From Candidatus Woesearchaeota archaeon (lineage in GTDB: Archaea; Nanobdellota; Nanobdellia; Woesearchaeales; GW2011-AR4): a stretch of 40,119 nucleotides of DNA. Made by a program: the position numbers and the translations under genes. Positions 4,768 through 11,750 of this stretch are shown piece by piece (the stretch's first letter is position 1; each line of letters opens with the position of its first letter). The notes beneath the pieces are model-generated. The model was not told the DNA's origin. It ran no database searches and saw only the letters and a list, made by a program, of their open reading frames with translations. The stretch covers positions 1 through 40,119 of the forward strand of contig JADHVE010000002.1 in assembly GCA_016784195.1 (NCBI GenBank), in the 5' to 3' direction.

Positions 4768-4993
4768 TTTTTATTAATATTCGACCATGTCCACACCTGA
4801 TTGTGCTTCTGTTTGTGCTTTATTGGATTATTTTTATTGGTTTTTTATTTATAGGTCATGTTTGATTATACTTTTTTAATGGTTATTTTTATTGATTATG
4901 ACACTTAATTTTTATTGGATATTTTTTAATGATTTTATTATTGAATTTTTTTAAAATCCTGCTTATTTTTATTATTAAATTAATAATACAATT

Positions 4994-5518
4994 TTATTTA
5001 TATACCTTGCTAAAAATCCCTACAAAAACCTCTTTAGGAATCTCAATGCCAGCCTCAACAAAAGCCTTTGCTAGATTATAGCCATCTTCCCTTTCATCCC
5101 CTTTGAACCTGAACCTTAACAGCCTTCCCAGAGTAAACGAGTTCAATAATCCCTCATTCAACTTTAAACTAACCTCTCTATTGCCTTTTGAAACCTTCTT
5201 ATTTAAAAAATCAACAGAAAATTCACTTTTATCAACATCATACCTTAAAAACTCCCACTCAACAAGATTTTTTAATATCTTCTCCTTGTAATTTTTATCC
5301 AGGTACGCATCAATATTATCTATTTTTAAATATTCAAAAAAATCAACATCTTTTACCTTAGAGAAAGAATAAACCCTGCCTAAATACTTCTTTACCTTCT
5401 GTCTGGAGCCTTTGCCCTTTCCCTTAACACTCCGTTTATACCATTTATTATCTACAAGGTAAGCATAAGGATATATTTTCCCTTTTTTATTCTTGATATT
5501 CTTTACACGAATAAACAT
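4994..5518 (-). CDS. Putative DNA-binding protein with IS1634-transposase-like N-terminus, no DDE domain
   Basis: MFIRVK...YAYLVDNKW...RQKVKKYLGR resembles the IS1634-family N-terminal motif; the protein is only 174 aa. Confidence 0.6.
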   Translation of the reverse strand: MFIRVKNIKNKKGKIYPYAYLVDNKWYKRSVKGKGKGSRQKVKKYLGRVYSFSKVKDVDFFEYLKIDNIDAYLDKNYKEKILKNLVEWEFLRYDVDKSEFSVDFLNKKVSKGNREVSLKLNEGLLNSFTLGRLLRFRFKGDEREDGYNLAKAFVEAGIEIPKEVFVGIFSKVYK

Positions 5519-6300: not shown

Positions 6301-6582
6301 CTAAATACGTACTTCTTTTGAAAATTCTTTCTTGAATTTTTCACTTACCTTCTTCAGTCTTTGCACTGCAGCTAGTAAAGCGTTTTTTGCAGTTTCATTT
6401 CCATCTGTCTCGATAATCATCTTCGGCTTGCTCACCAAAGGGTGGCGTATACTATAAGTAGCAACCTTAATATGGCTGTCATTCCACATCTCCTTCTTTA
6501 AAACATTGCAAAAAGTATGGCCTAAGCCCCGACTTTCAAAAACAAGTTTATTTTTTTTATTCTCAAGAATATTTAATTTCAT
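6301..6582 (-). CDS. rpoL: RNA polymerase subunit L (Rpo11)
   Basis: GHTFCNVLK...ATYSIRHPL...IETDG, 93 aa. Confidence 0.92.
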   Translation of the reverse strand: MKLNILENKKNKLVFESRGLGHTFCNVLKKEMWNDSHIKVATYSIRHPLVSKPKMIIETDGNETAKNALLAAVQRLKKVSEKFKKEFSKEVRI

Positions 6583-6644: not shown

Positions 6645-7286
6645 TTAATCTGTTTTCTCCAACCTAAAACACCCTACGTCAATATACTTTATCCTGCGGG
6701 AATGGAACTTATAAGTAGCTTTTAAGGGAAACTTGAAATACCATGCACCTGTAACTTTAAACTCATTTTTAGCAGAAAGTCTCTCTATAAATGCTTTACT
6801 CTCACTCTTATGGAAACTGTACACTACATTGCCTGTCTCAAAAGCCTTTTTTAAAAAAGCCAGGTCAGCATGTCTCACTTTAACCCCGAAAGGAGGATTT
6901 TCGATAACCGTATCGCACTTTTCATTAAACTCCTTAATATCTTCACATGTAAAAACAGCCTTGCCTTCTATATTGAACTCACTTTTCACCTTCTCAAGGC
7001 TCTTTTTAGCAATCTCTAAAGCTGAGCTATCACTATCCACAAAAAACACCTTTTTTGCCCCTAATAACAAGGCACCTATGCCTAATATTCCGGTTCCACA
7101 TCCCAGATCAGCACTCACTTTTTGCCTTATATCCCCATTTAGAAGCCCATTCCACAGTACAAATGCACCTATCTCACTGTCCATAGTATACTGCTCAACG
7201 CTCACTTTTGGCTCTTTAAAGCCTTCTAGCTTTGATAATGCTATTGCAAGCCCTGATTTTGACCTTATTTCCTTCATTTCGAACAC
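6645..7286 (-). CDS. METTL5-family RNA methyltransferase
   Basis: EQY, DLGCGTGILGIGA, NPPFG, VYSFH, C-terminal FH. Confidence 0.9.
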   Translation of the reverse strand: MFEMKEIRSKSGLAIALSKLEGFKEPKVSVEQYTMDSEIGAFVLWNGLLNGDIRQKVSADLGCGTGILGIGALLLGAKKVFFVDSDSSALEIAKKSLEKVKSEFNIEGKAVFTCEDIKEFNEKCDTVIENPPFGVKVRHADLAFLKKAFETGNVVYSFHKSESKAFIERLSAKNEFKVTGAWYFKFPLKATYKFHSRRIKYIDVGCFRLEKTD

Positions 7287-7517
7287 TCACTTCTCGCCAT
7301 TTTTGCCCTTATTTTAGCTATTTTCCAGCAATTCCATCCCTCACTATTACTTAAACTTTGCTCAAAATCCTTCCAAAGATTATTGCTTTCAGAACAAATA
7401 TAAAAACCTTGCCTTTCCACAAATCTGTTTTTATTCTTCATCATCTCTCTGAATTTTTTATCTCAACTAAAAAAATTAAAGTGCTATAACTCAAGTTCTT
7501 ATTCTCTTTATAGTCTC

Positions 7518-7685
7518 ATTCCCACAACATTCCCAGCAATTCCCTCGTCGGCAAAACATTTTCTTCATTCCCATGATAATCCCACCATATTCCCAAGACT
7601 ATCCCACCATAGTCCCACTATTTATAATTTTCTGTTCTGAAGATATTCCCCCCACGTTCCCAACTTATTCCCAACACAGTCCCAA
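7518..7685 (+). repeat. Helically phased TCCC(A) repeat array, 12 copies with 11-bp period
   Basis: TCCC starts at 7520, 7531, 7541, 7569, 7580, 7591, 7602, 7613, 7647, 7658, 7669 and 7680. Confidence 0.9.
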
Positions 7686-7726
7686 AAAACGAAATATTTA
7701 AATAAACCAGATTTATTTTATTAATT

Positions 7727-8440
7727 ATGTTCTGGAACCAAAACAAGATACAAAAAAAGATTTCAAATCTGCACAATCTTTTATCACAGTCATTCGGAAA
7801 TGTAAAGCAGGATACAGGCATCATCTTCCAGTGGCTGGACTACTTCCATAAAAAAAATTTAGAGCAGGAGCAAATAATCAAGAAGCTTCAGCTTGAGCTT
7901 TCTTACATACCTAAAACAAAAGAAGACCTAAAAAGAATCCTTGACAGCTATTATTCCTACGGGCCAATTTTAGAAAAAATCAATGATCTGAAAGAAAGAA
8001 TAGACTCTTCAAAAAGGGAGCGAATTATAGAAAATGAGCCAATCCTGAGAAAAATCAGAGAGCTTGATGAGCGTATAGAAGCAGTTAAACGGCAGGAATT
8101 AAGGCATATAGAAGAGCCAAAAGCTGCTTTAGAATTAGAATCAATAAGATCCAGATTAGGAAGATTAGAGCAAAAAAAGGATGCTATAAAGGAAAAAATA
8201 ATCAAGAGAATAACCAGAAACTCCAAAGATTATGTCAAGTCAATCTTAGTATCATACATCAAGAAATATGAAAAAATATCAGCCTTGCAGTTAAAGGAAA
8301 TGATTGTTGAAGAGCAGGGACTATGTTCAAAAAGCTCTTTCTACAGGATTCTGGAAGAAATAGAAATCATGAACGAAATAGCCACAATAAAGAAAGGCAA
8401 AGAAAAGCATTATATGGCTAAGAAGATAAAACTACAATAA
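7727..8440 (+). CDS. Coiled-coil protein with probable C-terminal winged helix
   Basis: Long charged heptad region, then ISALQLKEMIVEEQGLCSKSSFYRILEEIE plus a beta-hairpin. TTTAAATA box at 7697. Confidence 0.75.
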   Translation: MFWNQNKIQKKISNLHNLLSQSFGNVKQDTGIIFQWLDYFHKKNLEQEQIIKKLQLELSYIPKTKEDLKRILDSYYSYGPILEKINDLKERIDSSKRERIIENEPILRKIRELDERIEAVKRQELRHIEEPKAALELESIRSRLGRLEQKKDAIKEKIIKRITRNSKDYVKSILVSYIKKYEKISALQLKEMIVEEQGLCSKSSFYRILEEIEIMNEIATIKKGKEKHYMAKKIKLQ

Positions 8441-8498: not shown

Positions 8499-9068
8499 GT
8501 GATTGCCATTTTTAGCAATTTTTTTAAGCAGATAAAATGCTCTTTTATAAAAAAAGAGAAGAACAAGAGCATTTTACAAAAGAAAATCTTAAATGAAATT
8601 AAAAATCAGTCTGAAGAGCATTTAAGGGCTATTAATGAGAATACAAACGAGATTCAGTCCAATTATGGCTATATTTCAGAAATTGAAAATAAGATGCATA
8701 AATTAACTGAAAGGATAGACCAGATGCAGCTATTCCTGCAATCCAACAGCAACTTTGTCATGGATAGGATAGAGAATTTTGAGATAAAGCCATTGACAAG
8801 AAACGAGCAGTATGTATTCCTCGTTTTATACGCTTTGGAAGAGGAAAAAGGCTTTGTATCTTACTTGGATATAGCAAGAAAAACAGGCTTCACTGAATCT
8901 TTAGTGCTGGACTATGTAGCCTCTGTTATTGAAAAAGGAGTCCCAATAATAAAGAGATACATCAACAGCAAAGCCTATCTAAAGCTGGATAAAGACTTCA
9001 AAAGGTTGCAGACAAAAGAAAACATCTTGTGCATAGATACAGCTCAAAAAGAGCTTATCAATTTTTAA
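8499..9068 (+). CDS. Coiled-coil protein with C-terminal winged helix
   Basis: Coiled coil, then LTRNEQYVFLVLY...SYLDIARKTGFTESLVLDYVASVIEKGVPI. Confidence 0.78.
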   Translation: MIAIFSNFFKQIKCSFIKKEKNKSILQKKILNEIKNQSEEHLRAINENTNEIQSNYGYISEIENKMHKLTERIDQMQLFLQSNSNFVMDRIENFEIKPLTRNEQYVFLVLYALEEEKGFVSYLDIARKTGFTESLVLDYVASVIEKGVPIIKRYINSKAYLKLDKDFKRLQTKENILCIDTAQKELINF

Positions 9069-9092: not shown

Positions 9093-9138
9093 TGAAAAAC
9101 TTCGTTTTTCAGGTATTTTAAAAATCTTTGATGTTTCA
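9093..9138. repeat. Degenerate double-hairpin palindromic element
   Basis: TGAAAAAC-TTC-GTTTTTCA followed by TAAAAATC-TTT-GATGTTTCA; similar layout to 13106-13159. Confidence 0.5.
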
Positions 9139-9389
9139 AAACTTTTAATCAATTATTAAAACTTTTATTTCATACATATTTTAAAACTTTTAGTCATTGA
9201 CAATAACTTTTATTCTATTTATTGCTATATAGAAAATAAAAGAAACCAATTTTCCTAAAAAATCAACCAAATGACTTTCAACAATAAATCTATACCTTTT
9301 TGTGCAAAATCGAGCTTCAAAAGGATATTACATCAAAAACGCAACGATTCTACTACTTTTGTAGCATTTTAAGCCCATTTTCCATTAAA

Positions 9390-9419
9390 AACACAACATT
9401 TAAATACAAGTGTTGCGTT
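9390..9419. promoter_or_regulatory. 12-6-12 inverted repeat overlapping the TATA box; candidate recombinase core or binding site
   Basis: AACACAACATTT-AAATAC-AAGTGTTGCGTT; the arms match at 10 of 12 positions. Confidence 0.65.
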
Positions 9420-9444: not shown

Positions 9445-10110
9445 ATGGCAAAAAAATTCAACGAATATTACCTTAATTGGGATGAAATAAGCCAGATAAT
9501 TACAGCAGCAAAAAATCTTAAGGAAAGTGTTGTTCTAAAAATCTTAGCTCGAACAGGTATGCGTAGATTTGAGCTTGCAAATATCAAGGTTAAAAATGTT
9601 GATTTTGAAAGAAAGAGAATATTTATTGAGAAAGGTAAGGGAGCAAGCCAAAAAGACTCAAAATCAAGAACAGTTCCTGTTGATAATGACACTCTTCAGT
9701 CAATCAAATTCTACATAGAAAGCCGAAAAACAGGCTTTTTAATACAAAGCAACAACAAAATCAAGGACGGCATAAGTTTGAGCCAGATCAACAGAATTGT
9801 AGATAACTGTGCAAAAAAAGCCAATATAAAAAACCCCAATCCTAAGCTCAAAAACATGAACCCTCATATATTCCGCCATAGCTTCTCCAGGCTTAGCTTA
9901 GCAGCAGGAATACCCTTCAACATGGTGCAGAGAATAGCAGGCCATGCTGATGCCCGAACCACTCTACAGATGTACGGCATTCCCTCTATAACCGATACAC
10001 AGCAGCTATACGAGGAAAAGCTCGTTGAAAGGTTCAAAGAAAAGCCAAAGAGCAAAGAGGATGTTAAATTGACTAAGTTTACAGATAAAAACAATCAAAA
10101 ATCTTCTTGA
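9445..10110 (+). CDS. Xer-like tyrosine recombinase, catalytic domain only
   Basis: TGMRRFEL (R), GKG (K), HIFRHSF (HxxR), AGH and TTLQMY (Y) are all intact. 221 aa with no N-terminal core-binding domain. Confidence 0.92.
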   Translation: MAKKFNEYYLNWDEISQIITAAKNLKESVVLKILARTGMRRFELANIKVKNVDFERKRIFIEKGKGASQKDSKSRTVPVDNDTLQSIKFYIESRKTGFLIQSNNKIKDGISLSQINRIVDNCAKKANIKNPNPKLKNMNPHIFRHSFSRLSLAAGIPFNMVQRIAGHADARTTLQMYGIPSITDTQQLYEEKLVERFKEKPKSKEDVKLTKFTDKNNQKSS

Positions 10111-11173: not shown

Positions 11174-11750
11174 AAAAATGGTGGTAATTTTGATTTATTT
11201 AAATTTTTCTATCTCTGAAAATTTTATCAATATTTGATATTACCCTATAAACTATAATCTTTGATAAAAATATTTAATCATAAAACTATTGTTAAAACTA
11301 TATTTAATATTTTAGATAATCAAAAATAACCTTTACTAAACTATCAATAAAATATATAAACAATATAATCTATAACCAATTAAACCTATTCCCATCTATA
11401 GTTTAAACAACATAATGCCTAATTAATTAATTTCCATATTGAAAATTAAAAACATCAAAACCAAAAAGTGAGTGTTCAGATAGCAGTGATAAACCAATAA
11501 AAAATAACAAAAAAGAGCATAATCATAATTTGACCTAACCAGCAAAGAATTACTTAAAAAATGAGCTCAATAAATCAAAAAAATACAATATCCGAAGCAG
11601 CAAAAACATTCAATAATCGATAGTGAGACTTTATAGAGCATTCATAAATCTATGTACATTTTTTATCATCAAAAATAATATTTTATTTTATCAGTTAAAG
11701 ATTTAATGATCAATCAAAAAGATTAAACCTAAAGTGAGAATAACAGCTAA

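Follow-up and report, generated by a model that had tools for sequence, protein, structure and literature searches.

An array of directional TCCC boxes at 11-bp steps is conserved beside a pair of predicted winged-helix genes in Woesearchaeal archaea

The window analyzed here, a 40,119-base stretch of chromosomal DNA that forms the entire contig C67, derives from a small, low-GC Woesearchaeal (DPANN) archaeon, the genome assembly of which comprises 73 contigs and is 88.8% complete. It carries housekeeping genes, including a RecJ/DHH-family gene and those of UPP synthase, AMMECR1, rpoL, EF-1alpha and S10, and no tRNA gene was found within it. Between a methyltransferase gene on the minus strand and the gene p237 on the plus strand lies an array of short direct repeats, in the divergent intergenic setting that an earlier note on this DNA had ascribed to it. 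Downstream of the array, p237 and p189 make up an operon of these two genes alone, which is followed by short repeats, a palindrome and the gene of a tyrosine recombinase (Table 1).

Table 1. Features of the array locus, with positions numbered along the window.
Feature	Position	Strand	Evidence or remark
Small-domain methyltransferase, then rpoL (6301-6582)	6645..7286	-	Pfam MTS/PrmA, RNA_pol_L_2
Block 1, three TCCC(A) boxes (TCCC at 7520, 7531, 7541)	7517..7545	+	Kept in the 19-locus upstream alignment
CG-containing spacer box CGTCGGC; family consensus CGaCGGcAAA	7546..7552	+	19-locus alignment; CGACGG also beside the G039 array
Block 2, five TCCCA boxes, exact 11-bp steps (7569-7613)	7566..7618	+	Tandem Repeats Finder, alignment
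TATA-like ATTTATAA (7620-7627) + TTTTCTG	7620..7635	-	Minus-strand reading resembles a BRE/TATA pair
Block 3, four TCCC(A) boxes (7647-7680), flanked by two TATA-like boxes	7644..7685	+	
BRE-like CGAAA + TATA box TATTTAAATA of the p237 gene	7690..7704	+	22 nt 5' of the ATG at 7727
p237: conserved N-terminal helix, variable-length coiled coil, C-terminal winged helix (model)	7727..8440	+	
p189: long N-terminal helix, C-terminal MarR-, ArsR- or Orc1-WHD-like winged helix (model)	8499..9068	+	
Three AAAACTTTTA boxes (9138, 9158, 9183), 3' of p189	9138..9192	+	
Degenerate copy of the multi-copy palindrome TTATTTTC-N6-GAAAATAA	9219..9239	.	Putatively ORB-like
Inverted repeat AAAACGCAAC / 15 bp / GTAGCATTTT	9336..9370	.	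Genome-unique, 75 bp upstream of the recombinase gene
Short tyrosine recombinase, catalytic domain only	9445..10110	+	Pfam Phage_integrase 7.7e-28

Twelve TCCC repeats on one strand, in blocks of 3, 5 and 4, had been described in the earlier note, and a recount of the start positions reproduced this description exactly. On the plus strand TCCC starts at 7520, 7531, 7541, 7569, 7580, 7591, 7602, 7613, 7647, 7658, 7669 and 7680, which gives successive spacings of 11, 10, 28, 11, 11, 11, 11, 34, 11, 11 and 11 bp, and GGGA was absent from the same strand of 7400-7800. The whole window holds 106 TCCC, and the runner-up among its 190-bp stretches has 5 compared with the 12 of the array. Within the 440-bp intergenic region, 13 TCCC were observed, a number that none of 20,000 shuffles reached (maximum 10), and 9 neighboring TCCC pairs lay 10-11 bp apart, where the maximum among 20,000 shuffles was 3. 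At the genome-wide level (1,087,531 bases, with 1417 TCCCA on both strands), neighboring TCCCA pairs 11 bp apart occurred 7 times, all of them in the array; similarly, a pattern of three TCCC at 11 bp matched the array alone, and its reversed control matched nothing. Tandem Repeats Finder reported periods of 11 and 22 for the array. The array is a non-random, genome-unique, single-copy element.

Comparison of 372 units from 42 loci gave the unit consensus A(0.84)-K-T-C-C-C-A(0.91) followed by four variable bases, that is, a 7+4 bp unit. Of 330 box spacings, 215 were exactly 11 bp, 17 were 10 bp, 14 were 22 bp and 29 were 33-35 bp, and since the larger spacings cluster at 22 and 33-35 bp, the wider gaps mostly keep the helical phase. 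The 28-bp gap of the array in the window is out of helical phase. The number of exact boxes per array ranged from 4 to 16, with 2-3, then 5, then 4 boxes as the common layout, and the gaps carry the CG-containing boxes CGaCGGcAAA and TTTtCGTCtA, which are conspicuous in DNA of 33% GC.

The two TATA-like sequences claimed for the region were both located, ATTTATAA between blocks 2 and 3, and the other, preceded by CGAAA, between block 3 and p237. In a 19-locus alignment the proximal promoter has the consensus acgAAAtATTTAAATAaa, and the gap between it and the ATG is constant at about 22-24 nt. Based on the usual archaeal promoter geometry, p237 transcription would start near the ATG, and the p237 mRNA is probably leaderless. 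In 25 of 40 loci, 16-18 bp separate the final TCCC from the TATA box; in 4, the distance is one repeat longer, at 28-29 bp. The BRE thus occupies the slot of a would-be next box. When reverse-complemented, the family consensus of the spacer between blocks 2 and 3 reads CGAaAAgTTTAAAtA and resembles the proximal promoter (19 loci). The inner TATA-like box may thus be a leftward promoter with its start inside block 2, a suggestion with a slender footing that we hold loosely; this box was not universal among 40 loci across the order. Two sequencing runs labelled as metatranscriptomic, but probably of DNA, yielded 151-nt contigs identical to 7373-7523, 7502-7652 and 7604-7754, and because such contigs cannot show strand, ends or level, they were given no weight.

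The genes next to the array had been taken to encode winged-helix (wHTH) proteins, and the structure models agree with this: in those of p237 and p189 alike, a coiled coil is followed by a winged helix at the C-terminus. p237 is single-copy in its own genome and matched no family in Pfam and NCBIfam; its 910 homologues are all named hypothetical, the family spans at least 447 representative clusters at 50% identity (E <= 1e-3), all unnamed, and the homologues of p237 and p189 carry the source names Candidatus Woesearchaeota or Nanoarchaeota. Sequence searches of the PDB found nothing significant, and an ESM Atlas search with the p237 homologue P0094 returned unnamed clusters only. In the AlphaFold2 model of p237 (pLDDT 82.3), a helix at residues 5-59 and more helices up to residue 164 precede a winged helix composed of helix 167-181, strand 183-185, helices 186-196 and 202-214 and a wing at 218-231. 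VIA-align of residues 163-236 gave Z scores of 8-9.6 to many winged-helix domains, and Foldseek with the p237 model gave nothing at E <= 0.001. The segment C200-S-K-S-S-F-Y-R207 at the start of the third helix was invariant in 36 p237 sequences. Members as short as about 195 aa and as long as 382 aa match the profile at both ends, and no extra domain was found in the 14 longer members scanned; the coiled-coil middle thus varies in length, as it does in tethers.

The p189 model (pLDDT 78.7) comprises a helix at residues 2-83, a winged helix at 101-163 and two further helices after it. Among 34 members, HTH_24 was matched by 23 and MarR_2 by 17, and weak Fur, HTH_24 and MarR profile matches recur among members of the two families. 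Structural matches of p189 had Z scores of 8.3-9.4, with the winged-helix domains of Orc1/Cdc6, MarR, ArsR and others tied, and Foldseek gave no match at E <= 0.001. Its weak Foldseek rows include AspA (4rs8_A, E 3.3e-3, TM(target) 0.69; 5k5o_C, rmsd 3.3 over 84 columns); the rows for these two entries and for 5k5q, with E values between 3e-3 and 5e-3, are below significance and tied with MarR rows, and all three entries were absent from the top 50 VIA-align rows for p189. A profile comparison between p237 and p189 gave a probability of 2%, and the two are not detectably related. The fold matches are to generic winged helices with many families tied, which we counted against the reading of the array proposed below.

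The array travels with this gene pair. In a search of relatives, p237 was present in 29 of 41 genomes, its own included, and in 19 of 24 same-family relatives. Absence of the array from relatives that keep the genes had been named beforehand as a result that would speak against the earlier proposal, which withstood this check: an array was found beside the p237 orthologue in 18 of 19 same-family loci when 400 bp upstream were inspected; at the lone exception, L017, a TCCCA/TGGGA cluster lies downstream of p237 instead. The order rpoL, methyltransferase, array, p237, p189 is kept in most same-family loci, and p189 follows p237 both there and in the loci found by the DNA pattern. In the five same-family genomes that gave no p237 match, the neighboring methyltransferase was missing too, so that the locus is probably unassembled in these genomes rather than lost.

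The link between array and genes was also recovered from the DNA pattern alone. Four TCCC at 11 bp matched 55 of 401 genomes of the order, compared with 1 of 401 for the reversed control, and of 30 pattern-found loci across the order, 28 had a p237 homologue beside the array; of the two that did not, one was at a contig end and the other was a low-complexity false match. At the phylum level, three TCCCA at 11 bp were found in 18 of 151 sampled genomes, all belonging to this order (0 of 34 genomes of other orders), and the control matched 0 of 151. Counts from the strict pattern are lower bounds, as degenerate boxes escape it, and relatives are non-independent samples; the conservation counts take in the unpublished genomes G012, G294 and G232, on which the conclusions do not rest. 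The difference between strict arrays in 55 of 401 genomes of the order and p237 in 29 of 41 relatives was likewise counted against our reading. In a same-genus genome pair, array and promoter are identical at 171 of 216 positions (79%), whereas the remaining intergenic DNA is identical at 136 of 241 (56%) and the p237 coding DNA at 65%. Because array and promoter thus exceed both the rest of the intergenic region and the coding DNA, the array appears from these alignments to be under purifying selection.

Rearranged loci separate the array from its usual surroundings. In G195 and G099, which belong to one genus, p237 is inverted, turning its 3' end toward the array, and the final box is not followed by a BRE/TATA; nevertheless, 15-16 boxes are kept, in blocks of 5/7/4 and 5/7/3. 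In the complete genome G039 and in G037, the p189 and p237 genes diverge from a region that holds no array, and a cluster of the half-site, arranged partly as inverted pairs TGGGAcagTCCCA and accompanied by a CGACGG box, lies directly downstream of p237. The CSKSSFYR motif is unchanged in both genomes. The methyltransferase, which stands left of the array in most type-A loci, is not in that place in G039, where a homologue of it was not found and rpoL lies about 14 kb from the array. Since the G039 array lies away from the left-hand genes, the constant partner of the array is the p237/p189 pair. Inverted pairs of the same half-site are usual for protein half-sites and would be unexpected for an RNA or a coding feature. 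The flexible half-site geometry and the persistence without a promoter argue for a putative protein-binding site with a role beyond autoregulation, and autoregulation cannot be the universal role, because the array next to the inverted p237 adjoins no p237 promoter.

It is very improbable that the repeats act as RNA, with a transcript of UGGGA (minus strand) or UCCCA (plus strand) repeats titrating or guiding a protein. In favor of such a reading, the inverted BRE/TATA-like box would begin leftward transcription inside block 2, but this box is not universal, and the predicted folding of 7510-7705 was no better than that of shuffles on either strand (z -0.7 and -1.55). Rfam with permissive filters on 7000-7900 gave sub-threshold matches only, to IsrR (18 bits) and sR5 (15.5 bits). 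A period of 11 bp, further spacings at 22 and 33-35 bp and the inverted half-sites of G039 and G037 fit recognition of double-stranded DNA instead. A small peptide encoded on the minus strand of blocks 1-2 was considered as well and rejected, as its frame, read by eye, is not kept between loci.

Based on these findings, we favor, with somewhat better than even confidence, the reading that the array is a dedicated single-copy site for protein assembly on the chromosome, with its binder encoded next door. This agrees with the proposal of the earlier note that a nucleoprotein assembly site serves the adjacent wHTH proteins, which is supported, indirectly, by the conservation of the array with the gene pair and by the winged-helix models of both products. 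Because the array is single-copy, it is simplest to suppose a dedicated binder with its gene alongside. Each 11-bp unit presents one directional 7-bp box, and twelve such boxes follow one another head to tail at about one per helical turn. The winged helix of p237, with its invariant recognition-helix motif CSKSSFYR, would be the most likely binder, and p189 may join p237 or may instead recognize other sites, either the spacer boxes that contain CG or the AAAACTTTTA boxes; the comparative data, in which both genes always co-occur, do not by themselves separate p237 from p189 as the candidate binder. The coiled coils could link neighboring subunits into a cooperative filament. With block 3 ending one repeat-length before the BRE/TATA and block 2 following the second, inverted TATA-like box, the geometry of blocks and promoters suggests that the complex would set transcription of its own operon and perhaps that of a leftward transcript. 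The array would probably be a structural, centromere-like landmark too, because it stays beside the inverted p237 where no promoter adjoins.

A narrower reading, to which we give roughly one chance in a handful, is that the array is a transcriptional operator only, consisting of repressor or activator sites that tune p237-p189, and perhaps methyltransferase-rpoL, with no role in chromosome structure. The fixed distance of the final box from the TATA box and the position of the array between divergent genes fit an operator. Two precedents point the same way, as the ParR iterons of plasmid R1 double as operators (PMC2241845) and regulators of the OmpR/PhoB family bind direct repeats of 7+4 bp (PMC4832192). 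Against it, 10-16 boxes are many for autoregulation, the array is kept at the 3' end of the inverted p237 with no promoter adjoining, the p237 coiled coil varies by up to about 160 residues, and the G039 array does not lie near the methyltransferase or rpoL genes. If the array is an operator only, it remains, as archaeal promoter architectures go, unusually large and deeply conserved, and its geometry to the BRE/TATA is fixed.

Several elements lie downstream of p189, and some of them bear on two further readings. The 11-mer TTAAAACTTTT stands 3' of p189 in 14 of 19 family loci. Of 20 family loci, 13 hold a palindrome of the TTATTTTC-N6-GAAAATAA type, which stands behind p189 in some and ahead of the array in others, and in L023 an extra match to it lies inside the p237 coding region. 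By one pattern, the palindrome occurs at 11 places in G039 and at 9 in the genome of the window; three lie within 4 kb upstream of cdc6 in G039, and three on contig C55 of the own genome, which carries the only Cdc6-like match of that genome. Because it is multi-copy and clustered beside cdc6, the palindrome appears ORB-like and not a unique dif. As PMC2958812 defines it, dif is a unique 11-6-11 imperfect inverted repeat. A dif identity of the palindrome at 9219-9239 was rejected, since counts of 9 to 11 per genome make it multi-copy, and the array does not qualify as a Xer/dif site either, being made of direct repeats.

With the ORB-like palindrome, the array could be thought an iteron-type, perhaps secondary, origin, at which p237 or p189 acts as a site-specific initiator with Orc1/Cdc6 helping at the palindrome. 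We regard this as improbable. In its favor, direct repeats in helical phase adjoin the gene of a winged-helix protein, the palindrome lies inside the locus in the 13 of 20 family loci mentioned and clusters beside cdc6 at the G039 skew minimum and beside the own Cdc6-like gene, and the p189 winged helix matches Orc1/Cdc6 winged-helix domains across 87-91 residues at Z scores of 8.6-9.4, level with the MarR and ArsR families. The analysis of GC skew that had been suggested for detecting an origin or terminus gave no consistent signal in three relatives. The detrended cumulative skew of the complete G039 chromosome has its minimum at 760,921, beside cdc6 and about 325 kb from the locus, and its maximum at 167,976, and no extremum was found at the locus either there or across 400 kb of G101. 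In G195 (a 732-kb contig), the cumulative-skew minimum, at 641,553, is 13 kb from the array, which would favor an origin, but between 520 and 680 kb the curve is flat and noisy, and the minimum by ORF strand falls at 521 kb. Moreover, no orc1/cdc6 gene was found adjacent to the locus: cdc6 and locus are at 765 and 437 kb in G039 (about 328 kb apart on a 1,301-kb chromosome) and at 275 and 628 kb in G195 (about 353 kb apart). The TCCCA boxes all point one way, unlike inverted ORB elements flanking an unwinding element. Known iterons are 17-22 bp long and their Rep proteins have two winged helices, in contrast to the 11-bp unit and the single winged helix plus coiled coil modelled here.

The second of these readings, which we consider slightly more improbable still, makes the array an accessory architecture for the neighboring recombinase, as in cer/psi or res, with the complex directing or restricting recombination at a nearby core site. 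Of 20 family loci, 9 have a tyrosine recombinase gene no more than about 1.5 kb from p189; the only strong one of G039 is 3 kb from p189, and one in G195 is 2 kb from the array. The recombinase in the window scored 123 bits against NCBIfam XerA_Arch (cut-off 220), matching model positions 94-252 only, and is without an N-terminal DNA-binding part, and a genome-unique inverted repeat precedes its gene; the corresponding position of L016 holds a perfect inverted repeat. However, the array is 1.6 kb from the inverted repeat with two genes between, whereas known accessory sequences abut the core site, and the recombinases at this place are in most loci 21-37% identical to the own one and do not represent one orthologue. 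No recombinase was seen within the fetched flank in 11 of the 20 family loci. The recombinase slot is a recurrent neighbor, and any link of it to the array is conjecture.

For the reading of the array as a protein-assembly site, several known systems offer comparison. In PMC2241845, R1 parC is described as two sets of five 11-bp direct iterons, 159 bp overall, with 39 bp holding the promoter between the sets; it lies upstream of the operon of its binder, is bound cooperatively by one dimer per iteron, and serves as centromere and operator. The parC/ParR system is the closest analogue, as the present element likewise has a 5-box and a 4-box block at 11 bp, a 30-bp TATA-like spacer, a length of 165 bp and a position upstream of binder candidates. 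The layout in which blocks of 11-bp iterons flank the promoter of the binder operon was found at this locus and was absent from G195 and G099. It departs from parC in being a single-copy element of an archaeal chromosome, in its additional third block, and in persisting where no promoter adjoins. ParR is a ribbon-helix-helix protein, whereas p237 and p189 are modelled as a coiled coil plus a winged helix. A Pfam scan of the window ORFs found no actin-like or ParA-like domain, there is no partition NTPase in the operon, and ParA/MinD-like genes were not syntenic with the locus; this, too, we counted against our reading. With no ribbon-helix-helix binder and no adjacent NTPase, array-p237-p189 is therefore not a member of the type II partition systems.

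Other winged-helix systems share single traits. The sites of OmpR/PhoB-family winged helices are 11-bp head-to-tail repeats of a 7-bp motif and a 4-bp spacer (PMC4832192), and the present unit similarly has 7 conserved and 4 variable positions in an array that abuts a core promoter. The array differs from them in having 12 or more boxes compared with 2-4 and in being a single site rather than a regulon, and Pfam scans of p237 with 36 aligned relatives and of p189 with 34 found no receiver or Trans_reg_C domain. AspA of the Sulfolobus plasmid pNOB8 is an archaeal centromere binder of PadR-like winged-helix fold, with its gene adjoining its own site. The AspA site is palindromic, with spreading, in contrast to the discrete, directional boxes here, and ParA/ParB partners were not found nearby. 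As in the iteron replicons (RepA of pPS10, RepE of F, pi of R6K), phased repeats touch the promoter of a winged-helix gene and an initiator-like box is nearby; unlike them, the unit is 11 bp, the protein has one winged helix and a coiled coil, and two of three genomes gave no skew signal. A literature search, with subscription journals outside its coverage, found no description of the array element.

Taken further, the assembly-site reading could make array and p237/p189 a Woesearchaeales chromosomal centromere or anchor, that is, a parC-like segrosome of winged-helix proteins. Their coiled-coil rod, variable in length, and their conserved N-terminal head would tether one defined chromosomal site to the machinery of division or segregation, and no NTPase dedicated to the task would be encoded next to it. 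We put this forward tentatively and think it doubtful as it stands. Very little is known of the organisation, segregation and regulation of DPANN chromosomes, and the organisms are hard to grow; the locus supplies three parts that can be made and tested in vitro, namely a delimited stretch of DNA of about 165 bp and two proteins that are small and soluble. If the centromere reading were true, no segregation site would have been defined on a DPANN chromosome before this one, and a centromere-like landmark of this kind would be a new construction, combining a winged helix and a coiled coil with 11-bp directional boxes and no adjacent motor.

Similar patterns outside the family loci were also inspected. 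A mobile element was rejected as the source of the array, the synteny being vertical and the window carrying housekeeping genes. A viral link was rejected as well: four TCCCA at this spacing occur in at least 108 viral contigs, of which 80 loci proved to be unrelated 11-bp tandem repeats, with a p237/p189 homologue in 0 of 80. Within the order, one finding counts against our reading: a variant array of the form GTCCCTGAyrTG was found in G306 and G377, where the p237/p189-like matches nearby were weak.

Copies of the palindrome TTATTTTC-N6-GAAAATAA were found at about 9–11 places per genome. In the complete chromosome of the relative G039, the copies cluster next to cdc6 at the GC-skew minimum, and in the genome to which the window belongs a cluster also lies on C55, the contig with the sole Cdc6-like hit. 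The palindrome appears to be this lineage's Orc1/Cdc6 box (ORB). The G039 chromosome (loci L106-L171), a single contig of 1,301,350 bp, was also observed to have a large net strand asymmetry: summed around the full circle, A−T is +77,697 and G−C is +13,941, and plus-strand ORFs are in net excess. Such a net asymmetry is unusual in a circle that is replicated in both directions.

Positions of the repeat elements in the window, its own genome and G039
Feature	Sequence	Position	Arrangement
AAAACTTTTA boxes (three)	Window	9138-9192	Directly 3′ of p189; spacings 20 and 25 bp
Inverted repeat	Window	9336-9370	10-bp arms, 15-bp spacer; precedes the short recombinase gene by 75 bp
Palindrome TTATTTTC-N6-GAAAATAA	Window	9219-9239; 11431-11446	
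Palindrome TTATTTTC-N6-GAAAATAA	Own genome, C55	40357; 46116; 46158	
Palindrome TTATTTTC-N6-GAAAATAA	G039 (L106-L171)	760,951; 762,364; 763,693	

Between p189 and the recombinase gene, two further elements were identified. The AAAACTTTTA boxes keep their position after p189 in most loci of the same family, where one or two copies are present, and in the relative G195 a single box immediately follows the array of phased TCCC(A) boxes; these boxes may constitute the site of a second protein, p189. The inverted repeat occurs once in the genome and is perfect in the relatives' locus L016. Around position 9382, metagenome contigs vary or break off (region about 9262-9416): one has 80 different letters in place of 9263-9333, and in short contigs the match is limited to about 9336-9416, the sequence on either side being foreign. 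The inverted repeat, or the region about 9262-9416, may be either a junction that varies among strains or a site of recombination. The adjacent recombinase (9445-10110) is a short form comprising the catalytic domain only. A tyrosine recombinase of full length (295-aa frame, scoring 133.6 bits) lies on a different contig, at C30:22955-23428, and may be this genome's true XerA.

In G306 (C17, L290) and G377 (C15, L291), which belong to another family of the same order, a phased array of a variant type was observed, with ATGTCCCTGAyrTG at 11-bp spacing. Its adjoining genes are only weakly p237/p189-like, and it may represent a diverged sister system. Unrelated 11-bp tandem repeats with TCCCA occur in many viral contigs of IMG/VR (L182-L261), as exemplified by TCCCAYGGCTA units recurring in at least 10 contigs; no p237/p189 homologues were found in these repeat contigs.

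Elsewhere in the window, the minus strand of 7388-7447 bears a weak resemblance to a C/D-box sRNA (15.5 bits and E 0.64 against Rfam sR5), with ATGATGA and CTGA boxes separated by about 55 nt. This match is not conserved in a same-genus genome, and overlaps a 56-aa ORF (7274-7444) that is probably spurious. A degenerate tandem repeat of TTTATTGGATTATT, with a period of 13-14 and about 6 + 3.5 copies, occupies 4819-4953, in the intergenic region from the UPP synthase gene to the ORF at 4994-5518.
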